Of a DNA stretch of 64,000 nucleotides, positions 1,036-62,162 are shown in pieces. Position numbers and translations under genes: made by a program. The notes under the pieces are model-generated. The model was not told where the DNA came from. It did not search any database and saw only the letters and a program-made list of their open reading frames with translations. How positions within the stretch are numbered: the first letter of the stretch is position 1; every line of letters begins with the position of its first letter. This DNA is from Eledone cirrhosa. Lineage: Eukaryota. The stretch lies in NCBI GenBank assembly GCA_964016885.1, contig OZ024755.1, forward strand, positions 39,246,001 to 39,310,000, written 5' to 3'.

Positions 1036-1110
<75 letters not shown>

Positions 1111-1112
<2 letters not shown>

Positions 1113-1547
1113 GGTACCGCGGCCGATTAACTCAATCGATATGCAAATTAGGCTGCTCAGCCGTTAATATGCATAAGGAAAGTATATACTTTCAGACGTT
1201 CAACCTTCTGGCAGGAAGGTATACGTTGCTGACGATAGCTAATAAGCTTGAAACTAGTACAGCGTTCCTTTGTCAGTGTTGAACAAATGAGCAACGATGG
1301 TTGCTAGACACTGTACGGCTTAATTCGGGATGTTTGTTTACAAACACACCGAGCATTATAATAAATGTTCGGTGAATCCATACGTACATATATATATATA
1401 TGCGTGCTTGTATGTATATATATATATATATACATACTACTGTACGTCTGTATACATATATGTATGTACGTATACATACTTATATTTAAGTAACAGCCGT
1501 ACTAAGAGGGGGAAATGAAATTTCGTTTCATTTTTTCCGTTTTAAAT
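1111..1547 (+). mobile_element. Diverged monomer of the ~470-bp retrozyme-like family E
   Basis: Reverse-complement homologue of the 39457-40874 units; TA-flanked. Confidence 0.8.
1224..1264 (+). ncRNA. Type I hammerhead ribozyme (family E)
   Basis: cgttg-CTGACGA-tagct aata agctt-GAAA-CTAG-TA-cagcg. Confidence 0.8.
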
Positions 1548-13959: not shown

Positions 13960-14030
13960 TATTTTATTATACTCATTTCAAAAACAAATATCATCATGCG
14001 TTGACATTTGCGTTTTCGTCAGATAAAATA
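13960..14030 (-). ncRNA. Type I hammerhead (family B, left arm)
   Basis: Reverse complement of 14141-14211 with a few substitutions. Confidence 0.7.
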
Positions 14031-21471: not shown

Positions 21472-24395
21472 ATATATCTATCAGGTCAGGTCCTTCTTAA
21501 CATCTGTGACCCCACATTGATATGGTGTAATATACCCACATCTGGTCAGGTCCTTCTTAACATCTGTGACCCAACATTGATATGGTGTAATATACCCACA
21601 TCTGGTCAGGTCCTTCTTAACACATGTGACCACACATTGATATGGTGTAATATATACATCTGGTCAGGTCCTTCTTAACATCTGTGACCCAACATTGATA
21701 TGGTGTAATATACACATCTGGTCAGTTTCTTCTTAACATCTGTGACCCAACATTGATATGGTGTAATATACCCACATCTGGTCAGGTCCTTCTTAACATC
21801 TGTGACCCAACATTGATATGGTGTAATATACACATCTGGTCAGGTCCTTCTTAACATCTGTGACCCAACATTGATATGGTGTAATATACCCAAATCTGGT
21901 CAGGTCCTTCTTAACATCTGTGACCCCACATTGATATGGTGTAATATACCCACATCTGGTCAGGTCCTTCTTAACACATGTGACCACACATTGATATGGT
22001 GTAATATACACATCTGGTCAGGTCCTTCTTAACATCTGTAGCCCAACATTGATATGGTGTAATATACACATCTGGTCAGGTCCCTCTTAACATCTGTGAC
22101 CCCACATTGATATGGTGTAACATACCCACATCTGGTCAGGTCCTTCTTAACATCTGTGACCCAACATTAATATGGTGTAATATACACATCTGGTCAGGTT
22201 TCTGTTAACATCTGTGACCCAACATTGATATGGTGTAATATACACATCTGGTCACGCACATCTTAACATCTGTGACCCAACATTGATATGATGTAATATA
22301 CCCACATCTTGTCAGGTCCCCTTCTTAACATGTGTGCCCCAACATTGATATGGAGTAATATACCCACATCTGGTCAGGTTTATCTTAGTATCTGTGACCC
22401 AACATTGATATGGTGTAATATACCGATATCTCGTCAGATTCTTTTTAACATTTGTGACCCAACATTGATATGGTGTAATATACACATCTGGTCAGTTTCT
22501 TCTTAACATCTGTGACCCAACATTGATATCGTGTAATATACACATCTGGTCAGGTCCTTCTTAACATCTGTGATCCAACATTGATATGTTGTAATATAAC
22601 CACATCTGGTTAGTTTCTTCTTAACATCTGCGACCCAACATTGATATGGTGTAATATACACATCTGGTCAGGTGCTTCTTACCATCTGTGACCCCACATA
22701 GATATGGTGCAATATACACATCTGGTCAGTTTCTTCTTACCATCTGTGACCCAACATTCATATGGTGTAATATACACATCTGGTCTGGTTCTTCTTAACA
22801 TCTGTGACCCAACATTCATATGGTGTAATATACACATCTGGTCAGGTCCTTCTTACCATCTGTGACCCAACATTCATATGGTGTAATATACACATCTGGT
22901 CAGGTCCTTCTTAACATCTGTGACCCAACATTCATATGGTGTAATATACACATCTGGTCAGGTCCTTCTTACCATCTGTGACCCAACATTCATATGGTGT
23001 AATATACACATCTGGTCTGGTTCTTCTTAACATCTGTGACCCAACATTCATATGGTGTAATATACACATCTGGTCAGGTCCTTCTTACCATCTGTGACCC
23101 AACATTCATATGGTGTAATATACACATCTGGTCTGGTTCTTCTTAACATCTGTGACCCAACATTGATATGGTGTAATATACACATCTGGTCAGGTTCTTC
23201 TTAACATCTGTGACCCAGCATTGATATTGTGTAATATTCACATCTGGTCAGGTTTATCTTAGCATCTGTGACCCAACATTGATATGGTGTAATATACCGA
23301 CATCTGGTCGGATTCTTCTTAACATCTGTGACCTAACATTGATATGGTGTAATATACACATCTGGTCAGCCCCTTCTTAACATCTGTGACCCAGCATTGA
23401 TATGGTGTAATATTCACATCCGGTCAGGTCCTTCTTAACATCTGTGACCCAACATTGATATGGTGTAATATACCGACATCTGGTCAGATCCTTATTAACA
23501 TCTGTGACCGAACATTGATATGGTGTAATATAACCACATCTGGTTAGTTTCTTCTTAACATCTGCGATCCAACATTGATATGGTGTAATATACACATCTG
23601 GTCAGGTCCTTCTCAACATCTGTGACCCAACATTGATATGGAGTAATATACACATCTGGTCAGGTCCTTCTTAACATCTGTGACCCCACATTTATAAGGT
23701 GTAATATACCCACATCTGATCAGTTATTTCTTAACATCTGTGACCCTACATAGATATGGTGTAATATACCCACATCTGGTGACGTCCTTCTTAACATCTG
23801 TGACACAACATTGATATGGCGTAATATACACATCTGGTCAGGTCCTTCCTAACATCTGTGGCCCAAAATTGATATGGTGCAATATACACATCTGGTCAAG
23901 CCCTTTTTAACATCTGTGACCCAACATTGATATGGTGTAATATACACATCTGGTCAGGTCCTTCTTAACATCTGTGACCTAACATTGATATGGTGTAATA
24001 TACACATCTGGTCAGGTCTTAACATATGTGGCCCAACATTGATATGGAGTAATATACCCACATCTGGTCAGGCCCTTCTCAACATATGTCACCCAACATT
24101 GATATGGTGTAATATACACATCTGGTCAGGCCCTTCTTAACATCTGTGGCCCAACATTGATATGGTGTAATATACCCACATCTGGTCAGGTCTTAACATA
24201 TGTGGCCCAACATTGATATGGAGTAATATACCCACATCTGGTCAGGTCCTTCTTAACATCTGTGACCCAACATTGATATAGTGTAATATACATATCTGGT
24301 CAGTCCCTTCTTAACATATGTGACCCCACCTTGATATGGTGTAATATAGACATCTGGTCAGTTCCTTCTTAAAATATGTAACCCAACATTGATAA
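21472..24395. repeat. 58/60-bp minisatellite, ~50 copies
   Basis: Unit CATCTGGTCAGGTCCTTCTTAACATCTGTGACCCAACATTGATATGGTGTAATATAC(CC)A. Confidence 0.97.
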
Positions 24396-25389: not shown

Positions 25390-28300
25390 TTCAGTCATTA
25401 GACTGTGGCCAGGCTGGTGCACTTTTATTTTACTGGTGTTAGTCATTAGGCTGTGGCCATGTTGGGTCACTCTTATGTTACTGGTGTCAGTCATTAGGCT
25501 GTGGCCATGTTGGGTCACTCTTATGTTACTGGTGGCAGTCATTAGGCTGTGGCCATGTCGGGTCACTCTTATGTTACTGGTGTCAGTCATTAGACTGTGG
25601 CCATACTGGGGCATTGTTCTGGTACTGGTGTCATTCATTAGACTGTGGCCATGCTGGGTCACTGTTATGTTACTGGTGTCAGTCATTAGACTGTGGCCAT
25701 ACTGGGGCATTGTTCTGGTACTGGTGTCATTCATTAGACTGTGGCCATGCTGGGGCACTGTTATGTTACTGGTGTCAGTCATTAGACTGTGGCCATACTG
25801 GGGCATTGTTCTGGTACTGGTGTCATTCATTAGACTGTGGCCATGCTGGGGCACTGTTATGTTACTGGTGTCAGTCATTAGACTGTGGCCATACTGGGGC
25901 ATTGTTCTGGTACTGGTGTCATTCATTAGACTGTGGCCATGCTGGGTCACTGTTATGTTACTGGTGTCAGTCATTAGACTGTGGCCATACTGGGGCATTG
26001 TTCTGGTACTGGTGTCATTCATTAGACTGTGGCCATGCTGGGGCACTGTTATGTTACTGGTGTCAGTCATTAGACTGTGGCCATACTGGGGCATTGTTCT
26101 GGTACTGGTGTCATTCATTAGACTGTGGCCATGCTGGGTCACTGTTATGTTACTGGTGTCAGTCATTAGACTGTGGCCATACTGGGGCATTGTTCTGGTA
26201 CTGGTGTCATTCATTAGACTGTGGCCATGCTGGGGCACTGTTATGTTACTGGTGTCAGTCATTAGACTGTGGCCATACTGTGGCAATGTTATGTTACTGG
26301 TGTCAGTCATTAGACTGTGGCCATGCTGGGTCACTGTTATGTTACTGGTGTCAGTCATTAGACTGTGGTCATGCTGGGGTACTGTTATGTTACTGGTGTC
26401 AGTCATTAGACTGTGGCCATACTGGGGCACTGTTATGTTACTGGTGTCAGTCATTAGACTGTGGCCATACTGGGGCACTGTTATGTTACTGGTGTTATAT
26501 CATTAGACTGTAGCCATGCTGGGGCACTGTTATGTTACTGGTGTCAGTCAATAGACTGTGGCCATGCTGGGGCACTGTTATGTTACTGGTGTCAGTCATT
26601 AGACTGTGGCCATACTGGGGCACTGTTATGTTACTGGTGTCAGTCATTAGACTGTGGCCATACTGGGGCACTGTTATGTTACTGGTGTCAGTCATTAGAC
26701 TGTGGCCATACTGGGACACTGTTATGTTACTGGTGTTATATCATTAGACTGTAGCCATGCTGGGGCACTGTTATGTTACTGGTGTCAGTCATTAGACTGT
26801 GGCCATACTGGGGCACTGTTATGTTACTGGTGTCAGTCATTAGACTGTGGCCATACTGGGGCACTGTTATGTTACTGGTGTCAGTCATTAGACTGTGGCC
26901 ATACTGGGGCACTGTTATGTTACTGGTGTCAGTCATTAGACTGTGGCCATACTGGGGCACTGATCTGTTATTGGTTTTAGTCATGAGACTGTGGCCATAC
27001 TGGGGCACTGTTATGTTACTGGTGTCAGTCATTAGACTGTGGCCATACTGGGGCACTGATCTGTTATTGGTTTTAGTCATGAGACTGTGGCCATACTGGG
27101 GTACTGTTATGTTACTGGTGTCAGTCATTAGACAGTGGCCATACTGGGGCACTGTTATGTTACTGGTGTCAGTCATTAGACTGTGGCCATACTGGGGCAC
27201 TGTTATGTTACTGGTGTCAGTCATTAGACTGTGTCCATACTGGGGCACTGTTATGTTACAGGTGTCAGTCATTAGACTGTGGCAATACTGGGGTATTGTT
27301 ATGTTACTGGTGTCAGTTATTAGACTGTGGCCATGCTGGGGCACTGTTCTGTTACTGGTGTCAGTCATTAGACTGTGGCCATGCTGGGGCACTGTTGTGT
27401 TACTGGTGTCAGTCATTAGACTGTGGCCATACTGGGGCACTGTTATATTACTGGTGTCAGTCATTAGACTGTGGCCATACTGGGGCACTGTTATGTTACT
27501 GGTGTCAGTCATTAGACTGTGGCCATACTGGGGCACTGTTATGTTACTGGTGTCAGTCATTAGACTGTGGCCATACTGGGGCATTGTTATGTTACTGGTG
27601 TCAGTCATTAGACTGTGGCCACGCTGGGGCACTGTTATGTTACTAGTGTCAGTCATTAGACTGTGGCCATACTGGGGTACTGTTATGTTACTGGTGTCAG
27701 TCATTAGACTGTGGCCATACTGGGGCATTGTTATGTTACTGGTGTCAGTCATTAGACTGTGGCCATGCTGGGGCACTGTTCTGTTACTGGTGTCAGTCAT
27801 TAGACTGTGGCCATGCTGGGGCACTGTTCTGTTACTGGTGTCAGTCATTAGACTGTGGCCATGCTGGGGCACTGTTGTGTTACTGGTGTCAGTCATTAGA
27901 CTGTGGCCATACTGGGGCACTGTTATATTACTGGTGTCAGTCATTAGACTGTGGCCATACTGGGGTACTGTTATGTTACTGGTGTCAGTCATTAGACTGT
28001 GGCCATACTGGGGCATTGTTATGTTACTTGTGTCAGTCATTAGACTGTGGCCATGCTGGGGCACTGTTATGTTACTAGTGTCAGTCATTAGACTGTGGCC
28101 ATACTGGGGTACTGTTATGTTACTGGTGTCAGTCATTAGACTGTGGCCATACTGGGGCATTGTTATGTTACTGGTGTCAGTCATTAGACTGTGGCCATGC
28201 TGGGGCACTGTTCTGTTACTGGTGTCAGTCATTAGACTGTGGCCATGCTGGGGCACTGTTGTGTTATTTGTGTCAGTCATTAGACTGTGGCCATACTGGG

Positions 28301-29060
28301 GCACTGTTATGTTACTGGTGTCAGTCATTAGACTGTGGCCATACTGGGGTACTGTTATGTTACTAGTGTCAGTCATTAGACTGTGGCCATGCTGGGGCAC
28401 TGTTGTGTTATTGGTGTCAGTCATTAGAGTGTGGCCATGCTGGGGCACTGTTATGTTACTGGTGTCAGTCATTAGACTGTGGCCATACTGGGGCACTGTT
28501 ATGTTACTAGTGTCAGTCATTAGACTGTAGCCATGCTGGGGCACTGTTATGTTACTGGTGTCAGTCATTAGAGTGTGACCATACTGGGGCACTGTTATGT
28601 TACTGGTGTCAGTCATTAGACTGTGGCCATACTGGGGCACTGTTATGTTACTGGTTTTAGTTATGAGACTGTGGCCATACTGGGGTACTGTTCCTTTACT
28701 GTTGTCAGTCATTAGACTCTGGCCATACTGGGGCACTGTTCTGTCACTGGTGTCAGTAAGTAGACTGGCCATGCTGGGGTAGTTATATGACTGGTGTCAG
28801 TCATTACTCTGTGGCCATGCTGGGGTACTGTTATGTTACTGGTGTCAGTCATTAGACTGTGGCCATACTGGGGCACTGTTATGTTACTGGTGGCAGTCAT
28901 TAGACTATGACCATGCTGTGGCACTGTTATGTTACTGGTGTCAGTCATTAGAATGCGGCCATACTGGGACACTGTTATGTTACTGGTGTCAGTCATTAGA
29001 CTTCGGCCATACTGGGGCACTGTTCTGTTACTGATTTTAGTCATGAGACTGTGGCCAGGC
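25390..29060. repeat. 48-bp minisatellite, ~76 copies
   Basis: Unit GTCAGTCATTAGACTGTGGCCATACTGGGGCACTGTTATGTTACTGGT. Confidence 0.97.
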
Positions 29061-37000: not shown

Positions 37001-37401
37001 TATAATAAGGAGAGACAAACACAGATATATATATATTCATATATGAAATTCAAATCACAAGGGACGTTAAACGACCAAGGTGAAGAAAATACTAAGTAGG
37101 GATGTTAGACTCGACTAAAATGATAAATTAAGAATTACAAACCGAAATTATGGTAACTATCACATCCCAACAGCTTTTAGTAGAACCGTTCTCAAATAAG
37201 TGGAGAGAGATACAAATCTAATCGTGGTTCAGTGCATGTTCAGATTAGGAATATCCTAAAATACTGTAATTCTTAGTTTATCCTTATAATTGAGTATAGA
37301 AAATGTATTATTCATAGTTAGTATTTTCTTCTCTTTGGTGGTTTACATTCCTTGTGATTTGAACACAAATATGTATATATTTGTGTTTGTTTCTCTCTAT
37401 T
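37001..37401. repeat. Old diverged inverted repeat, TA-flanked
   Basis: 37001-37100 mirrors 37312-37401 (AAATCACAAGG/CCTTGTGATTT, AAGAAAATACTAA/TTAGTATTTTCTT). Confidence 0.7.
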
Positions 37402-37597
37402 ATATATATATACGTATATACATATATATATATACGTATATACATATATACATATACATATATACATATACAAATATACATATATATATACATACATATA
37501 CATATATACATATATATACATATATACATATATATACATATATACATATATATATATACATATACATACATATATACATATATACATATATATATAC

Positions 37598-37644
<47 letters not shown>

Positions 37645-37737
37645 CATATATATATACATATATATATACATATATATATATATACATATACATATATATA
37701 TACATATATATATATACATATACATATATATATATAT

Positions 37738-37808
<71 letters not shown>

Positions 37809-37864
37809 CTATATATATATATATATATATATACATATATATATACATATATATATACATATAC

Positions 37865-37937
<73 letters not shown>

Positions 37938-38052
37938 CACATATATATATATATACATATACATATATATATATATATATATACATATATGCATATACAT
38001 ATATATATATACATATACATATATATATATACATATATATATATACATATAC

Positions 38053-38101
<49 letters not shown>

Positions 38102-38102
38102 G

Positions 38103-38134
<32 letters not shown>

Positions 38135-38474
38135 ATATGTATATATGCATATATATATATATACATATATATATATATGTATATATATATATGTATATAT
38201 ATATATACATATATATATATGTATATATATATGTATATATATATATACATATATATATATATACATATATACATATATATACATATATATACATATATAT
38301 ATACATATATTTATATACATATATATACATATATATATAGATATATTTATATACATATATTTATATACATATATATACATATATATATACATATATTTAT
38401 ATACATATATACATATACATATATACATATATATATACACATATATATATATATATATACAGATATATATACAC

Positions 38475-38521
<47 letters not shown>

Positions 38522-38558
38522 CATATATACATATATATATTTTTATACATATATACAT

Positions 38559-38621
<63 letters not shown>

Positions 38622-38770
38622 CATATATACATATATATATACATATATTTATATACATATATACATATACATATATACATATATATATATATATTTATAT
38701 ACATATATACATATACATATATACATATATATATACATATATATACATATATATATATACATATATATAC

Positions 38771-39061
<291 letters not shown>

Positions 39062-39110
39062 TGTATATATACATATATATACATATATATATACATATAT
39101 ATATATATGC

Positions 39111-39253
<143 letters not shown>

Positions 39254-39304
39254 CAAATATATATATATATACATATATATATATACATGTATATATATAT
39301 ATAC

Positions 39305-39353
<49 letters not shown>

Positions 39354-39366
39354 CATTTATATATAC

Positions 39367-39397
<31 letters not shown>

Positions 39398-39767
39398 CAT
39401 ATACATATATATATATACATATATATATATATACATTTATATATATACATATATATATAAATTGAAACAAAATGAAAACGAAATTTCATTTCTCACTCTT
39501 AGTATGGCACTTACTTAAATGTAAGTATGCATGTATACGTACATACATATATGTATACAGACGTACAGTAGCATGCACATATATATATATATATACATAT
39601 ATACATACATATGCATACAGGTACACATACATATATGCACGTATCAGTTTAGCGGCGCTTATTATAACGTCGCTTTGTTCGTTTGTAAACAAACTGAACA
39701 GCCTGAATTTATGCCATACGGTGTTAAGGCAACCACGTCACCTTTTTGTTCAACACTGACACAGGAA

Positions 39768-39808
39768 CGATGTACTAGTTTCAAGCTTGTTAGCTATCAT
39801 CAGCACCG
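39768..39808 (-). ncRNA. Type I hammerhead (trimer unit 1)
   Basis: cggtg-CTGATGA-tagct aaca agctt-GAAA-CTAG-TA-catcg. Confidence 0.85.
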
Positions 39809-40235
39809 TTTACCCATCTGCCAGATAGTTGAACGTTCGAAAGTATATACTTTCCTTATGAAAATTAACGGCTGAGCAGCCTAATTTGCATATTGAGTGA
39901 GTTAAATCGGTCAGGCATACCGAAAACGATAAATTGAAACAAAATGAAAACGAAATTTCATTTCTCACTCTTAGTATGGCACTTACTTAAATGTAAGTAT
40001 GCATGTATACGTACATACATATATGTATACAGACGTACAGTAGCATGCACATATATATATATACATATATACATACATATGCATACAGGTACACATACAT
40101 ATATGCACGTATCAGTTTAGCGGCGCTTATTATAACGTCGCTTTGTTCGTTTGTAAACAAACTGAACAGCCTGAATTTATGCCATACGGTGTTAAGGCAA
40201 CCACGTCACCTTTTTGTTCAACACTGACACAGGAA

Positions 40236-40276
40236 CGATGTACTAGTTTCAAGCTTGTTAGCTATCATCAGCACCG
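40236..40276 (-). ncRNA. Type I hammerhead (trimer unit 2)
   Basis: Same as unit 1. Confidence 0.85.
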
Positions 40277-40707
40277 TTTACCCATCTGCCAGATAGTTGA
40301 ACGTTCGAAAGTATATACTTTCCTTATGAAAATTAACGGCTGAGCAGCCTAATTTGCATATTGAGTGAGTTAAATCGGTCAGGCATACCGAAAACGATAA
40401 ATTGAAACAAAATGAAAACGAAATTTCATTTCTCACTCTTAGTATGGCACTTACTTAAATGTAAGTATGCATGTATACGTACATACATATATGTATACAG
40501 ACGTACAGTAGCATGCACATATATATATATATATACATATATACATACATATGCATACAGGTACACATACATATATGCACGTATCAGTTTAGCGGCGCTT
40601 ATTATAACGTCGCTTTGTTCGTTTGTAAACAAACTGAACAGCCTGAATTTATGCCATACGGTGTTAAGGCAACCACGTCACCTTTTTGTTCAACACTGAC
40701 ACAGGAA

Positions 40708-40748
40708 CGATGTACTAGTTTCAAGCTTGTTAGCTATCATCAGCACCG
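40708..40748 (-). ncRNA. Type I hammerhead (trimer unit 3)
   Basis: Same as unit 1. Confidence 0.85.
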
Positions 40749-40871
40749 TTTACCCATCTGCCAGATAGTTGAACGTTCGAAAGTATATACTTTCCTTATG
40801 AAAATTAACGGCTGAGCAGCCTAATTTGCATATTGAGTGAGTTAAATCGGTCAGGCATACCGAAAACGATA

Positions 40872-40907
<36 letters not shown>

Positions 40908-40918
40908 CATAAACGATA

Positions 40919-40970
<52 letters not shown>

Positions 40971-41037
40971 CATATATATACATATATATATATACATATA
41001 TATATATACATATATATATATATACATATATATATAC

Positions 41038-41106
<69 letters not shown>

Positions 41107-41113
41107 TATATAC

Positions 41114-41144
<31 letters not shown>

Positions 41145-41157
41145 CATATATATATAC

Positions 41158-41188
<31 letters not shown>

Positions 41189-41253
41189 CATATATATATA
41201 TACATACATATATATATATATATATACATATATATATACATATATATATATAC

Positions 41254-41320
<67 letters not shown>

Positions 41321-41355
41321 TATATACATATATATATATATACATATATATATAC

Positions 41356-41386
<31 letters not shown>

Positions 41387-41409
41387 CACATATATATATA
41401 TACATATAC

Positions 41410-41483
<74 letters not shown>

Positions 41484-41541
41484 ATATATATATATGTAAA
41501 TATACATATATATATATACATATACATATATATATATATAC

Positions 41542-41572
<31 letters not shown>

Positions 41573-41883
41573 CATATACATATATGTATATATGCATATA
41601 TATATATATATACATATATAATAATATATATATATATGTATATATAAATATGTATATATATATATACATATATATATGTTTATATATATGTATATATATA
41701 TATATGTATATATATATATACATATATATACATTTATACATATATATATACATATATTTATATACATATATACATATACATATATACATATATATATAAA
41801 TATATTTTTACATACATGTATGCACATATACATACATATATATATACATATATTTTTACATACATATATGCACATATACATAC

Positions 41884-41968
<85 letters not shown>

Positions 41969-42003
41969 CATATATATACATATATATATACATATATATA
42001 TAC

Positions 42004-42034
<31 letters not shown>

Positions 42035-42053
42035 CATATATATATATATACAC

Positions 42054-42124
<71 letters not shown>

Positions 42125-42155
42125 CATATATATATACACATATATATATATATAA

Positions 42156-42240
<85 letters not shown>

Positions 42241-42241
42241 C

Positions 42242-42291
<50 letters not shown>

Positions 42292-42315
42292 ATATATACA
42301 TATATATATATGGAC

Positions 42316-42350
<35 letters not shown>

Positions 42351-42575
42351 CATATATACATATATATATGCATATATACATATATACATATATATATATA
42401 CATATATACATATATATATATATATACATATATATATACATATATATATACATATATATATATACATATATATATACATATATATATATATACATATATA
42501 TATATACATATATATATATACATATATATATATACATATATATATATATACATATATATATACATATATATATAC

Positions 42576-42678
<103 letters not shown>

Positions 42679-42712
42679 CATATATACATATATATATATA
42701 TATATGTACATA

Positions 42713-42750
<38 letters not shown>

Positions 42751-42859
42751 CATATATACATATACATATATACATATATATATATACATATATACATATA
42801 TATATATCTATATATATACATATATACATATACATATATACATATGTATACATATATAT

Positions 42860-42895
<36 letters not shown>

Positions 42896-43283
42896 GTAAA
42901 TATACATATATATATATACATATACATATATATATATATACATATATATATACATATATATATATATATACATATACATATATGTATATATGCATATATA
43001 TATATATATATACATATATAATAATATATATATATATGTATATATAAATATGTATATATATATATACATATATATATGTTTATATATATGTATATATATA
43101 TATATGTATATATATATATACATATATATACATATATACATATATATATACATATATTTATATACATATATACATATACATATATACATATATATATAAA
43201 TATATTTTTACATACATGTATGCACATATACATACATATATATATACATATATTTTTACATACATATATGCACATATACATAC

Positions 43284-43358
<75 letters not shown>

Positions 43359-43393
43359 CATATATATACATATATATATACATATATATATAC

Positions 43394-43424
<31 letters not shown>

Positions 43425-43481
43425 CATATATATATATACACATATATATATACATATATATATATATACATATATATATAC

Positions 43482-43530
<49 letters not shown>

Positions 43531-43549
43531 CACATATATATATATATAA

Positions 43550-43632
<83 letters not shown>

Positions 43633-43633
43633 C

Positions 43634-43689
<56 letters not shown>

Positions 43690-43713
43690 ATATATACATA
43701 TATATATATGGAC

Positions 43714-43766
<53 letters not shown>

Positions 43767-43889
43767 CATATATATATATGCATATATACATATATACATA
43801 TATATATATACATATATACATATATATATATATATACATATATATATACATATATATATACATATATATATATATACATATATATATAC

Positions 43890-43994
<105 letters not shown>

Positions 43995-44022
43995 TACATA
44001 TATATATATATATATGTACATA

Positions 44023-44064
<42 letters not shown>

Positions 44065-44339
44065 CATATATACATATACATATATACATATATATATATA
44101 CATATATACATATATATATATGTATATATATACATATATACATATACATATATACATATGTATACATATATATATACATATATACATATATATATATATA
44201 CATATAAATATATATAGATATAAATACATATATATATATATATATAAATACATATATATATATATATATATATAAATACATATATATATATATATAAATA
44301 CATATATATATATATATATATATACATATTTATATATAC

Positions 44340-44372
<33 letters not shown>

Positions 44373-44710
44373 CATATTTATATACACATATATATATATA
44401 AATATATATATATACATATATATATATACATATATATATATACATATATATACATATATATATATACATATAAATATATACATATATATACATATATATA
44501 TATACATATATATACATATATATATATATACTTATATATATATATATATATACATATATATACATATATACATATATATACATATATATATACATATATA
44601 TACATATATACATATATATACATATATATATATACATATATGTATACATATATATATATACATATATACATGCATATATATACATATATATATATACATA
44701 TATATATACA

Positions 44711-44778
<68 letters not shown>

Positions 44779-45311
44779 CATATATATACATATATATATA
44801 TATACATATACATATACATATATATATATACATATATATATACATATATATATATACATATATATATATACATATATATATATATACATATATATATACA
44901 TATATACATATATATACATATATATACATATATATATACATATATATATATACATATATATATATACATATATACATATATATACATATATACATATATA
45001 TACATACATATATACATATATATACATATATATACATACATATATACATATATATACATATATACATATATATACATACATATATACATATATATACATA
45101 TATACATATTTATACATACATATATATACATATATATATACATATATACATATATATATACATATATATATATATACATATATATATATTCATATATATA
45201 TATACATATATATATATACATATATATATATACATATATATATACATATATATATATACATAGATATATACATATATATATATATACGTATATATATATA
45301 CATATATATAC

Positions 45312-45387
<76 letters not shown>

Positions 45388-45427
45388 ATATATACATATA
45401 TATATATATATACATACATATATATAC

Positions 45428-45510
<83 letters not shown>

Positions 45511-45698
45511 CATATATATATATACATATATATATATACATATATATATATACATATATATTTATACATATATATACATACATATATATATACATATATA
45601 TATATACATATTTATACATACATATATATATATATACATATTTATACATACATATATATACATATATATACATACATATATATATATACATATATATA

Positions 45699-46313
45699 TG
45701 GTGGCTGCCAACTCGTTTTCGAGTACGGCCACTACTTTATATCCATGTAGGAGAACCCCTACCAATGCGCTGAACGAGTGTGACTTTTTAGTTCAGCCAG
45801 CGACTTGAAAACTCTGGTACAAACACTACACCTGTGACAATTATTGACACATAGTGCTGGGCCAATGGTACCATGTAACGACAAGTGCCGATAGATCAGA
45901 GATCTCCAGATATAAAGCAATGCCTGTGCCGTGAAGCTTTTATAGTGAGCAAAGGCACTGCACAAAGCCAGTCCCACTCTCTTAACCAAGATAATATTTA
46001 CCAAAAAGAAGAACAAGTCAACATCATTGGATACCATCAGGGTTGCAGGTGTTATATCAGAGTTTTCCTTCTCCTAGAATTCTGCCTTGACAAAGGCTCA
46101 GGGGTCATCTCTCCCAGTGATTTTGGATGGCCATTGACTCTAAAGAGCTCTTTTGCCCTTTGACAGGTTTTGTTTTTAGTCCTGCAGGATGTCCAAAGGC
46201 ACCCTCCTCACCAAGAAACCTTGGTGGGGTTGCCAGTTTAGTCGCCAACGACCCGACCATGGGACAGGTTGTACTGGGATACATGTTACCAGTAACACCA
46301 ACTGGTGACCTGA
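45699..46313 (-). mobile_element. ~610-bp non-autonomous RTE-like element, copy 2
   Basis: Matches 31056-31660; [24 protein letters not shown] zinc-finger remnant. Confidence 0.7.
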
Positions 46314-46428: not shown

Positions 46429-46494
46429 TATTTCATTATACATATTTCGGGGATACCATATTAAAAATATGGCATGCCTTCTTCAGATAAAATA
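46429..46494 (-). ncRNA. Type I hammerhead (family A)
   Basis: tattttat-CTGAAGA-aggcatgccatatt..aatatggtatcccc-GAAA-TATGTA-TA-atgaaata. Confidence 0.75.
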
Positions 46495-54878: not shown

Positions 54879-56480
54879 CATGAATTGATGTATGACATAC
54901 CTCAACGGCTTTGATGGTTGAGGTCCAGTATTGGCAGTGATTTATTACAACAAATCTCAATATTTATATACCACAAATAATAACATGATAAACTTAAATT
55001 TAATGAAGAAGAGGATGTGGAGCGATATATAAGTATAAGGAGGGGGTGAGTATGAAGAAATGCATGAAGAAATATATAAATATATACATAAATTAATATT
55101 TAAATGCGTAAATATATGTTAGAGAAGAGAAATGAAGAGAGAGAGAGGGGGGAAGAGATATAAGAGAGAAGAAGAAGAAAAACGTAACTGCAAAAAAGAA
55201 AGAAAGAAAGAAGGAAGAAGGAGAAAAATGATGCGTGACCGTTGTTTTCAAATATTAAGTCTATTTGACTTAATATTTGAAATATCTTTTGGCTTTCAAA
55301 GCACTTAGATAACATAAATGATCACACTAGTTGAACGAGTTTGTTTACATTCTTCGTAAATAATTTTTGTTCTATCCAAATGGATTAATAATGTATATTT
55401 AACATGATTTATTCAGTTTAATAATATATGAAAAATCTTTAAAGGAAAACTATATATATTAAGATGTAATTACAGAACTGAAATCGAAATAATAATACTT
55501 TTAAGAGAAATTATAACTACTTATTAATCATTTAAGAAAATGACAACCAATGAATTGAAATGTTTTGATAATGGAAATAGAATAATTCAGATAATAATTC
55601 TTAACATAATATAAAATACATATACTGATGGTGATATGTGCATAGGTTGTAGTAAATATCCTTATACATATTTAATATGTATTTAAACTTGCTTTATAGA
55701 TAAAAATGTTTTTGAATTTTGTAACAAAATATTTAGTAAATATATTAATTAAACTATGCTTCTGATTATTATAGAAAATATTTTTATATTGTTTAATTTT
55801 GATATAATATATTAGTATAATTAGCTTAAACATAACCAAATACAAAAGATATTAAAAAGATTTCATGGTTTTTAATTGGTTGCTTCTATTTGACTTAACA
55901 TTTGAAAACAACGGTCACGCATCATGTCTCTTTCATCCTTCTTTCTTTCTTTTTTTGCAGTTTTGTCTTTCTTCTCTCTTCTCTCCCCCTCTCCCCCTCT
56001 CTCTCTCTCTCTCTCTTCCTTACTCTTCCCTAACACATATATTTACGCATTTAAATATTTATGTATATATTTATATATTTCTTCTTGCATTTCCTCATAC
56101 TCACCTCCTCCTTATACCTATATCTCGCTCTACATCCTCTTCTTCATTAAATTTAAGTTTATCATGTTATTATTTGTGGTATATAAATGTTGAGATTTGT
56201 TGTAATAAATCATTGCCAATACTGGAATTGAACCATCAGGGCCGTTGAGGTATGTCATACATCAATTCATGAATTTTATCTGAGGAGGACGTACTGAAAA
56301 AACAGCACAGTACCTTCGAAATATATATAATAAAACATATATTTTGATTATGTGAATGTCTTCATTTATTAATATTTTGAATAATATTAATAACTCCAGA
56401 AAACTTCTTTGTAGAGTGCTTTTAATCTATTGTAAAACTATATTCATTGAGTAATTAATGAACCATATTAATCTTTGTTA
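54879..56480 (+). mobile_element. Penelope-like terminal-repeat remnant with inverted arms (family L)
   Basis: 54879-55261 mirrors 55892-56271; hammerhead follows the right arm. Confidence 0.75.
56274..56335 (+). ncRNA. Type I hammerhead (family L)
   Basis: ttttat-CTGAGGA-ggacgtactg..cagtaccttc-GAAA-TATATA-TA-ataaaa. Confidence 0.8.
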
Positions 56481-56587: not shown

Positions 56588-58348
56588 CGAAGCCAGAGGG
56601 GTTCTTTGATGCCACAACACTACATGAAGAAATGGCAACCATCAACCACATAGACATAACGGAGGAGGATGTGGTGTATGCCATTGATGAAATTAGAACA
56701 GACTCGGCCGCTGGACCTGATGGATTCCCATCAGTTCTCTTAAAAATATGTAAGCGGGCCTTAGCAACTCCAGTGAAGATGCTCTTCAGAAGCTCCTTGG
56801 CTAGAGGTGTACTACCCAGGGAGCTGAAAGAAGGCACAATATGCCCTGTCCATAAAGGAGGTAGCAGAGCGGAGGCCAAAAACTAAAGGCCAGTCTCCCT
56901 GACGTCGCATATCAGTAAGGTCATGGAGCGAGTCGTCAGAAAGAAACTGATCACTTTCCTCGAGGAAAATGACCGCCTGACTAGCACGGAACATGGCTTC
57001 CGCCCAGGAAGAAGCTGCCTTACACAGCTGCTACATCACTACCATTGGGTACTGAGACAACTACTAGACAGCTCACATGTGGACGCGATATATCTTCACT
57101 TTGCGAAGATCGACCACGGAATGATATGTCACAAACTACACGGACTCGGCATAACTGGAAAAGTAGGTGAATGGCTGCATGGCTTCCTAAGGGACAGAAG
57201 CCAGGCAGTCGAAGCAAATGGGGCCCTCTCGAAGGAAACACCAATAACAAGTGGGGTGTCCCAGGGGACAGTCCTGGGACCACTACAGTTTTTGGTGGCT
57301 CTCTCAGACATGCCCTCTATAGTACATACAACAACATCCCTCACTAGCTATACTGATGACACTAAGGTAGCACAGGCAATCAAAAACCCGGCTGACGCTG
57401 CCCTTTTACAGCAGGATCTGGATGCCATATACAAATGGGCGGAAGAAAACAACATGCAGTTTAATGCTGGCAAATTCTAAGCCCTACAATACAAACCTCC
57501 AAACAAACCTGCAAACACAAATATAGTGGAACACAACTACACAGGACCCGGAGGGACCGATATCCCCGTGTTAAAATCGATACGAGACCTGGGCATAGAC
57601 ATGAGCGATGATGCATCTTTTTCTTCACACATCATGAAAGTGGCGACAATGTGCAGACGACTTGCTGGCTGGATCTTGAGGACTTTGCGGACAAGAGATC
57701 GAGACACCATGTTGACACTATGGAGGACATTTGTCCTAAGCCGCCTGGACTACTGCTCGCAGTTATGGTCACCCCATAGTGTCAAACTAATCACGGAGCT
57801 TGAGGCAATCAAGCGAAGCTACACCAAGAGGATTGCCAAGATGAGGGAGACAAGCTACTGGGAGAGGCTGAAGGAACTGAACCTCTACTCCTTGGAGCGA
57901 AGACGGGAGAGATACGCAGTGATCTACATGTGGAAAATCCTGGAGGGACTAGCACCAAACTTTGGCATTGGTAGCTGGACCAACCGTCGAACAGGACGTC
58001 ACTGTGTGGTGCCAAAGGTCCCGGATTCTACAACTAGAATAAGGAGCAGGTATTGCAATAGCCTGGGATTCAAGAGCCCTCAACTCTTCAACAAGCTGCC
58101 GAGGGATCTGAGAGATTTGCATGACGTGGAGGTGGGTGTCTTTAAGAAACATGTCGACACCTTGTTATCCAGGATCCTGGATGAGCCCACAGCAAGACAA
58201 GAGGGAAACCTAAGGGCAGCAGCAACAAAATCCCTCTTACACCAGTGGCCAACCTATACAGGCTGGAGATAAAATGTGTAGCAACAAGGGCGGAGCCCCA
58301 GCATGGCCTCAGCCGGATGGCTGAAACAGGTAAAAGAGTAAAAGAGTA

Positions 58349-59060: not shown

Positions 59061-59655
59061 TATATACATATATATATATATACACATATATAAACATATA
59101 TATATGTATATATATATATACATATATATATGTATATACATATATACATATATAAATGTATATACATATATATATGATTATATATATATATATATACATA
59201 TATATATGTATATACATATATTCATATATATATAAACATATATATATATGTATATACATATATTCATATATATATAAACATATATATATATGTATATAAA
59301 TTAATATGTATGTGATGAAACACAGATACCAACACATCTGTATATATATCGTGAAAGAAAAATTTAGTCAGATTGAAGTATACTAATTATTATACTACAC
59401 TTTGTCCATATCGATTTAAAATAATAAATCAACGGAGACGAACTGTATTGGCAAAAGCCGTGATGTTTAGGCACATTTAACTTTCAAAATCAAACCTGTT
59501 CCGTAGATAAGTTTAGACTTTAAGATCCAAATATGTTTCGAGTTAAATAAGTGTAGGAATATCAAGTCCGCTCTCCTCAGTAAACATCCGGGGATATATT
59601 TTTCCTCATTCGAGCTGATTCCATTGTAAAAGAATTCATTACCTTATTAATTTTA

Positions 59656-60611: not shown

Positions 60612-60614
<3 letters not shown>

Positions 60615-61377
60615 TGTAGAAGATACGAATACCAGGTACAAACGCCTAACAGAACTAAGAGAATTTTTGCTCAAACAAAAATACCCATCTCTACTTATAG
60701 AAAATGACATTTCAGCGGGCTATAAAAATACCTATACAACAACTTAGAACAACCCAAGGAAGAAGAAACCAAGAACTGGTCATACCATTTATAATGACAC
60801 ACAACCCATGTCACCAGAATATCTTCAACACTGCCAAAGCAAACCTACCGATCATTGCTCAAAGTAATGAATTAAAAGGCTTAATCATAGATCGATCTTT
60901 GACTCTTAGTAAAAGACAGCCAAAAAATTTGAAGCAATTGCTAACAAAAGCAAAGTTTGACCTTAACAACAAAGACCAATCATTCACTGTATCTAAATGC
61001 AATGATAATCGATGCGGCACATGTCAATCCATACACGCCGGTCAATATATGAAAACAAAAACTGGAAAAATATTCCCAAATGCAAATATGAACTGCAAAA
61101 GCAGAAATCTAATTTACTGCATTAAATGCCCGAATTGTGAAGAACTATATGTCGGTCAAACTGGAAATGCACTATCGGTGCGTGCACGGGTACACCGACA
61201 ACAAATCAGAGACCCAAATGTCCGTCAGATACCCCAAAGCGGCCACCTGGCAACATGTGGTCAGGGAATATTATAATATTCCCATTCTACAAATTACACA
61301 GCACAAGTGAAATCAAGAGAAAAATCAAAGAAAAGAATTTTATTGATAAATACAAACCCAAGCTAAATGAACAATAA
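60612..61377 (+). pseudogene. Penelope-like ORF C-terminus (Cys-rich linker + GIY-YIG endonuclease)
   Basis: RQPKNLKQLL, CNDNRCGTC, CKSRNLIYCIKCPNCEELYVGQT..RARVH, REIKRKIKEKNFI-like helix ending PKLN; frameshifts. Confidence 0.9.
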
Positions 61378-61751
61378 TAACGCCTAGGGGTATTACTTCT
61401 ACTACCACTATGACCACGACCACTAACAACAACAACAACAACAATAATAATAATAATAAAAGTGATGTTGATGGTGATGATTAATAGAAAATGTTATTTT
61501 CATCATTTCAAAAAGCAAAACAATTGATACGTTGGATATGACTATTGGTCGTTAGCATGCTCAACCAGCCGTGACGCTTAAACCAATCAGCTGTAGTAAT
61601 TCAGTGAAACTACACACTGATTGGTCGAAATACAGTTTACAGGGCTTTGCATTCTGGAGCCACTTTTCTCTGTATGAAATGTATAAAAGGTAGGAAATTT
61701 ACCCATCTCATTACAGTTGAAAATTGCAAACTCGACTGTCACCACATATCA

Positions 61752-61790
61752 TGAACCTAAAGATTGCGAAAGCATGAAAGTACTTGTTCA
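61752..61790 (+). ncRNA. Hammerhead with one core substitution (CTAAAGA)
   Basis: tgaac-CTAAAGA-ttgc gaaa gcat-GAAA-GTAC-TT-gttca. Confidence 0.7.
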
Positions 61791-61940
61791 ATTAACACTT
61801 AGAATTTAATATTCTATCATACTATTTCATTATAATACCATTATATATATTTTAAAGGATTGTAAATAAAACGAGTAAATCAGACAAAGTTGGAATTCCT
61901 CTTATTAATATAATCTTCTATACACAATCATACACACCCG

Positions 61941-62162
61941 TGTATATTTACCTATCAATATCTATATATATATATATATACATATATACATATATATATA
62001 TATGTACATATATATATGTATGTACATATATATATATATGTATATATATATATGTATATACATATATATATGTATATATATATATATATATGTATATACG
62101 TATATACATATATATGTATATACATATATATGTATATGTTTATATATACACCTATATACATA

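Follow-up and report, generated by a model that had tools for sequence, protein, structure and literature searches.

How do three near-identical copies of a short repeat, each bearing a hammerhead ribozyme motif, come to lie head to tail in a sea of TA repeats, and which enzyme put them there? The locus lies in a 64,000-nucleotide stretch of the Eledone cirrhosa genome, the whole of which is called the window here. The trimer belongs to an animal non-LTR retrozyme family, a known kind of element, with about 29,000 hammerhead copies. We consider it probable that a non-coding hammerhead repeat was inserted here recently and with a single arm, a Penelope-like element (PLE) likely having reverse-transcribed it in trans at nicks in (TA)n.

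Structure of the trimer and its hammerheads

Three units of 472, 468 and 472 bp start at 39459, 39931 and 40399. No substitution separates them, the sole difference being a 4-bp indel in the internal TA tract. Unit 1 (39459–39930, minus strand; unit alignment and end mapping) is the 3'-most in the hammerhead sense, and its end at about 39457–39462 is the distal start site, H2, abutting (TA)n. Unit 2 (39931–40398, minus strand; unit alignment) has the internal TA tract that is 4 bases shorter. Unit 3 (40399–40874, minus strand, 472 bp plus 4 junction bases; unit alignment and end mapping) forms the 5' end of the array, where AT microhomology makes the link to the TA sea. Also on the minus strand of unit 3 lie the proximal start site, H1 (40454–40470), in the loop of a predicted 6-bp hairpin; the ‘tail’ segment between H1 and H2 (40399–40453, about 55–60 nt by end mapping); and an internal TA-rich palindrome (40475–40584, from the fold and end mapping), which is variable in length and predicted to form a long hairpin. 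The equivalents of H1 in the other units, at about 39516–39529 and 39988–40001, are like H1 itself unused as an end here. The trimer is a one-armed insertion ending at H2.

The insertion target is a (TA)n/(TATACA) sea spanning 37401–45699, within which a slipped 47-bp duplicate of the outer junction of the array occupies 40905–40921. The insertion ends sit in (TA)n, where a target-site duplication is unreadable, and end mapping found no terminal repeats other than the unit itself. GC content over 40001–41000 is 0.33, below 50%. The stop-to-stop frames of the unit are of low complexity and at most 116 aa long; the three unit frames among 21 scanned gave no Pfam match, and neither the frame list nor Pfam revealed a reverse-transcriptase (RT) or GIY-YIG frame in the units. 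The head-to-tail trimer, its insertion in a TA sea and its lack of coding capacity, all three described in the sequence-only reading, are thus confirmed. Further along the sea, at about 41500–44300, there is a tandem duplication of about 1.4 kb, near the trimer's own length, which is either a true duplication or an effect of assembly.

All three units carry on the minus strand the motif CUGAUGA-U-AGCU(AACA)AGCU-U-GAAA-C-UA-G-UA|CAUCG, a type I hammerhead, at 39766–39810, 40234–40278 and 40706–40750, with predicted cleavage at 39773/39772, 40241/40240 and 40713/40712, respectively. Stem I has 7 bp, stem II has 4 bp with a U·U mismatch at its base, and stem III has 2 bp with a UA cap inside the palindrome ACUAGU; the earlier description of one minus-strand hammerhead per unit with an ACTAGT palindrome as stem III therefore holds for each unit. 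An Rfam scan gave no match at the gathering score. The one hammerhead model that appeared below the cut-off of 52 was Hammerhead_HH9 (18.5 bits, E 0.074), and the miRNA-type matches are the TA palindrome. The hammerhead assignment accordingly rests on the core motif together with covariation in stem I. The core pattern is intact in 93 of 95 sampled full units, which were themselves chosen via a hammerhead anchor. In the predicted minimum-energy fold, the core is concealed. Because the stem III loop has just 2 nt, cleavage through ACUAGU would probably take place in dimers.

A young and abundant family

Copy numbers were obtained from genome-wide pattern searches. An 18-mer of the hammerhead has 28,868 exact matches in the 3.0-Gb genome, far above chance, its reversed control having 0; the whole core pattern has 25,954. 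A 55-mer of the trimer's subfamily has 8,027 exact matches, while two patterns representing single-site variants of that subfamily have only 8 and 9, which indicates that it is young. In addition, full trimer units match units at other loci without a substitution, as expected from the recent event that had been proposed on the near identity of the copies. Across the family, units are 420–570 bp long.

A monomer at about 1110–1545 (plus strand; hammerhead core at 1229) represents a second subfamily. It has 80% identity to the trimer unit over 440 bp, its 3' end is at H2 and both its ends lie in (TA)n. Stem I is CGUUG/CAGCG and stays paired through a G·U to U·G swap, in keeping with the earlier account of a diverged monomer that retains the hammerhead. 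The two subfamilies are about 20% apart, and both keep the hammerhead core and the long helices. Seven of 94 pairs changed on both sides between them, including stem I and two helices that flank the start sites (a helix at alignment columns 32–50 was disregarded as out of register), and 32 of 500 shuffles reached that count; the covariation mostly reflects one subfamily split. Predicted folds are more stable for the hammerhead strand (z −4.67) than for its complement (z −3.10) with the TA hairpin removed, and the predicted circle folds at −155 kcal/mol. With a type I hammerhead in each tandem unit, no coding capacity and a highly self-paired predicted RNA, the retrozyme identity proposed from the sequence stands.

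No tRNA gene was found in the 64-kb window, and a tRNA-SINE origin is unsupported. The likeness to an A/B box is weak and was judged by eye only, and T-runs on the sense strand speak against read-through by polymerase III.

Two fixed 3' ends and permuted 5' ends

End mapping covered 86 stretches (84 loci and two stretches of the window) and then 40 further loci from many contigs; the loci were non-random, being chosen by coordinate order or for rare variants. The pooled count comprises 120 loci with matches. It omits L158 (inside L238), L239 (an overlap and segmental duplicate), one duplicated L093 pair, segments shorter than 45 nt, and any end that adjoins N or the edge of a locus. Overlapping loci were replaced by wider stretches, and loci L248–L277 lie outside the end mapping.

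In the hammerhead sense, 186 of 219 3' ends fall at H1 or H2, which together take up 43 of the 472 unit positions. H1 (positions 405–421) accounts for 84 and H2 (positions 454–7) for 102, the H2 window being set wide because some variants are missing from the references; of the remaining ends, the internal TA tract holds 10, and 23 lie at other positions. The two sites are about 60 nt apart, 250–310 nt downstream of the cleavage site, and the ends at them are followed by (TA)3 or more in 109 of 113 cases in the first set and 78 of 80 in the second. The 5' ends are spread round the unit, with 21–41 per 59-nt bin, the first bin being inflated by about five ends at unit position 3 that are alignment breaks. 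Circularly permuted start points had been anticipated for insertions of this kind: across the 120 loci the 5' ends are indeed permuted and multimeric forms recur, whereas the 3' ends are fixed. The pattern was first seen on one contig and was recovered on loci from many.

Within 5 nt of the cleavage site there is only one of the 219 5' ends, as against 5.1 expected, and one of the 219 3' ends. This distribution identifies hammerhead-sense RNA as the template and rules out the cleaved linear monomer, which would never detectably have been copied. Folding predictions place H1 in the loop of a hairpin and H2 in a single-stranded loop, with the long perfect TA tract paired. As the sites used are unpaired and the TA tract is not, RNA structure, rather than homology to the target, probably sets the start sites.

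Two-armed insertions

Divergent pairs of arms joined 5'-to-5', mostly with an overlap of a few bases, were found at 70 loci or sub-loci; convergent pairs numbered 0 in the first end-mapped set. Both outer ends lie at H1 or H2 in 54 pairs, of which 53 combine H1 with H2, one has H2 twice and none has H1 twice (binomial p 3e-15 for the excess of one H1 and one H2); in the other 16 of the 70 an end lies elsewhere. The tail segment is thus carried on just one arm. Arm lengths range from 49 to 6,930 nt and are mutually unrelated. These unrelated lengths, together with locus L146, which mirrors from the outer ends, led us to reject fold-back synthesis as the general route to the second arm. L1-type twin priming likewise yields 5' inversions, a point against a reading specific to PLEs.

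Four loci (L093, L239, L214 and L236) hold consecutive two-armed insertions, and in L093 and L239 whole two-armed units were duplicated together with their TA flanks. At L015:1200–1360 the 5' end of the repeat is fused to the 3' part of an apparent other family with a similar T-rich terminus, possibly by a template switch at the shared end.

A Penelope-like element shares the anatomy

The same pattern of ends recurs in a coding element of this genome. The L162 family is a Neptune-type PLE with RT and GIY-YIG domains, whose hammerhead (5,901 genome matches) likewise has a U·U mismatch and a 2-bp stem III. Its copies have two 3' ends about 54 nt apart, running into (TA)n. Among 27 ends in 25 loci, a script called 11 short, 14 long and 2 unclassed, and inspection by eye gave 12 and 15; all four two-armed loci have one short and one long end. 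No alignable sequence was found between this end and the retrozyme unit outside TA runs. Two fixed 3' ends, one per arm, and their recurrence in a Neptune-type PLE make it likely that a PLE reverse transcriptase mobilises the repeat.

Candidate enzymes are plentiful, with 10,596 GIY-YIG candidates in the genome. Long uninterrupted frames with both RT and GIY-YIG occur at L159:3309–6122 (938 codons), L160:1488–4019 (844) and L161:1275–4562 (1,096), loci in which a hammerhead scan picked up none. Four of five such RT and GIY-YIG frames compared have the CX2-5CxxC linker of the Neptune type. Comparison with 42 GIY-YIG loci yielded no PLE whose pseudo-LTR is homologous, and two of these loci have a separate insertion of the retrozyme repeat nearby. 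In 126 stretches there was no PLE frame fused 5' to an array, the single match being distant and on the opposite strand. A search for PLEs with related hammerheads returned 190 matches, and among the matches listed nearly all are point variants of the retrozyme family.

The likeness extends to PLEs described elsewhere. Available text on PLEs gives as hallmarks inverted 5'-truncated arms, a 30–40-bp one-sided tail and a (TA)n bias (PMC8557442), and, in the available account of a purified Poseidon PLE protein, the enzyme cuts both strands of AT-rich DNA, and two adjacent internal RNA start sites, used in vitro without strand preference, define the genomic tail (PMC11167929). The retrozyme repeat resembles Neptune, Naiad and Poseidon PLEs, as far as these sources describe them, in its tail with two 3' ends, its inverted 5'-truncated arm, its tandem copies and its (TA)n targets (PMC8557442, PMC11167929), and in both the hammerhead lies upstream of the RT start sites. 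It differs in that the unit continues into its own start whereas a PLE continues into its ORF, in its tail of 55–60 nt as against the published 30–40 bp, and in having no RT or GIY-YIG frame. Lacking such a frame of its own, the repeat is not an autonomous PLE. The rule of one site per arm bears on how the two start sites may be employed by a PLE protein in vivo.

Taken together, we suggest the following course of insertion. A PLE protein, the likely helper being a (TA)n-targeting element of Neptune or Naiad type, would bind the folded hammerhead-sense RNA, and cDNA would start at the internal single-stranded sites H1 and H2, one for each nicked target strand. The polymerase would pass unit junctions and cleavage sites for 0.1–15 units, and the two cDNAs would then be joined 5'-to-5' by microhomology. 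The template would be multi-unit RNA without a break, whether as an uncleaved multimer or as a circle made of one or more units, and probably a mixture; unequal exchange would later lengthen some arrays.

The nature of the template

A narrower version of this scheme, in line with the sequence-only reading and regarded here as possible though rather doubtful, holds that hammerheads cut the transcript to 468–472-nt monomers, a ligase closes them and RT rolls round the circle, producing arrays that include the trimer. The near-absence of ends at the cleavage site, with 210 read-through cleavage junctions in the first set, agrees with it, as do the predicted circle fold and the retention of the hammerhead core between subfamilies about 20% apart. 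So does the uniformity of arrays: median divergence is 0.2% within arrays as against 3.0% between loci in subfamily A, and 0.5% as against 5.2% in subfamily B, and in 9 of 19 multi-unit arrays every full unit shares substitutions that the other sampled loci lack. Rare variants occur in both arms at 15 of 56 two-armed loci, one rare variant is present twice, 508 bp apart, and retrozyme circles have been shown in coral, mussel and axolotl, according to the available text of PMC7229834. However, variants specific to single units are mirrored across arms, which a monomer circle would not produce unless followed by gene conversion. In L216 the two arms agree in a unit 1 substitution and in the loss of 8 bp from unit 2; L212, L154 and L238 have one mirrored marker each; and L146 mirrors a three-unit block, offset by one unit. 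Gene conversion between arms could mimic such mirroring, and L216 belongs to a biased sample, having been found via a variant of L146 that weakens stem II, yet its template still spans an intact hammerhead. A clean mirror is absent from L062 and L143. The 56 pairs together hold 3 in-register sites, a further 12 that match across arms, many of which are polarity noise, and 14 within-arm sites. The five loci with mirrored unit-specific variants point to multi-unit templates, which at some loci span several units through intact hammerheads. A stem II variant with 20 copies genome-wide is not found in all units of any multi-unit array. Also against monomer circles, in the available text of the two sources, PLE insertion in vitro is independent of hammerhead cleavage, with unprocessed RNA as the main substrate (PMC11167929), and only one of nine Xenopus dimers was cleaved in vitro (10.64898/2026.07.22.740005).

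That arrays, the trimer included, grew in place from an inserted monomer or dimer by slippage or unequal crossing-over seems unlikely, although a satellite-type model is proposed in the accessible part of 10.64898/2026.07.22.740005. Growth of this kind would explain variant periods within arms of 6 units in L219, 4 in L227, 3 in L146 and 2 in L210 and L094; the duplicated variants of L227 are missing from the opposite arm, and the block duplication there looks post-insertion. The 47-bp slip and the 1.4-kb duplication adjoin the trimer itself. It leaves unexplained the fixed H1 and H2 ends, their split between arms and the scattered 5' ends, as well as multi-unit arms on both sides with mirrored variants. 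At the trimer, the internal junctions are the element's own and have no TA spacer, so at least one junction arrived with the template. Far less probable still, indeed very improbable, is that the assembler expanded one or two copies inside the TA sea. Units without substitutions and simple-repeat flanks with a duplication are what such an error would leave; against it, many loci have arrays with unit-specific variants and as many as 15 hammerheads, the length of unit 2 sets it apart, and a contig of an independent run (X4, type unrecorded) crosses the head-to-tail junction without a mismatch. The data as a whole fit a mixture of templates followed by growth at the DNA level; with one arm and exactly three units, the trimer's own history is less certain than that of the family.

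More speculatively, a dimer of PLE reverse transcriptase might act on a single circular retrozyme RNA, priming both target strands from the pair of fixed loops and rolling out opposite-facing arms of up to 15 units; we hold this only tentatively. If it were true, double rolling-circle retrotransposition would be readable from a genome, with direct anatomical evidence that the Penelope machinery mobilises retrozyme circles. The twelve-unit arm at L219:3488–9214 consists of two copies of a six-unit block, which fits either a hexamer circle copied twice or duplication of a whole array.

Relation to known retrozymes

The repeat is like the metazoan non-LTR retrozymes of coral, mussel and axolotl, as set out in the available text of PMC7229834, in having non-coding tandem units that each carry a type I hammerhead, a GC content under 50%, a strongly self-paired predicted circle and tens of thousands of copies. 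In axolotl HHR_Amex2, too, stem II has a basal U·U mismatch and stem III is 2 bp long. Units are longer in E. cirrhosa, at 420–570 bp as against 150–450. The same text makes no mention of fixed ends, a tail, inverted arms or (TA)n targeting. Vertebrate non-LTR retrozymes are given a working definition of a minimum of two units in a row that have full hammerheads, which describes the trimer, and a length range of 51–972 bp, which includes its unit; here, as there, PLEs co-occur in the genome (10.64898/2026.07.22.740005, available portion). A plant LTR retrozyme, with type III hammerheads in its LTRs, was rejected because here the open helix is stem I and stem III is a closed hairpin.

Mobilisation of animal retrozymes by PLEs has been proposed from co-occurrence and pseudo-LTR homology in the accessible part of 10.64898/2026.07.22.740005, whereas the link drawn here comes from insertion anatomy, no homologous pseudo-LTR having been found. 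The non-autonomous Chlamys elements, such as MRC1, are likewise PLE dependents with multicopy head-to-tail insertions; as the available text of PMC8557442 has it, they differ in that their 3' end resembles that of the autonomous partner, and hammerheads are missing from most Chlamys elements. Neither an octopus or cephalopod retrozyme nor, for any retrozyme, a tail or a two-armed structure was found described in full-text literature, including the available text of PMC7761336 and PMC11722881; subscription papers, Repbase or the supplement of PMC7229834 may hold such descriptions.

What the family adds, we are fairly sure, is an insertion anatomy that ties a retrozyme to the PLE machinery: a PLE-specific signature carried at high copy number and near-zero age. 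With its start sites and target defined, with candidate enzymes to hand and with two-armed loci that keep a unit-by-unit record of the template, the family makes it testable what enzyme mobilises animal retrozymes and whether it copies the circle.

Other features of the window

At least five further hammerhead-like families, with a TA-rich palindromic stem III and some as inverted pairs, are present in the window. Motifs lie at 944 (plus) and 58794 (minus)/58863 (plus); at 46486, 49817, 54426, 54603, 60435 and 63773; at 14022 (minus)/14149 (plus); at 56280; and at 59580. PLE-type hammerheads seem to be very abundant in this genome. A 5'-truncated Neptune-type PLE at 60613–61957, with 97% identity to the L162 frame, has a hammerhead core with one base changed at about 61757 and a long (tailed) end into (TA)n. 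A broken reverse-transcriptase frame (56887–58272; RVT_1, E 4e-18) lies downstream of the motif at 56280. Two minisatellites occupy 21480–24394 (58 bp, about 50 copies) and 25391–29057 (48 bp, about 76 copies), the latter with stop-free frames of up to 686 codons.
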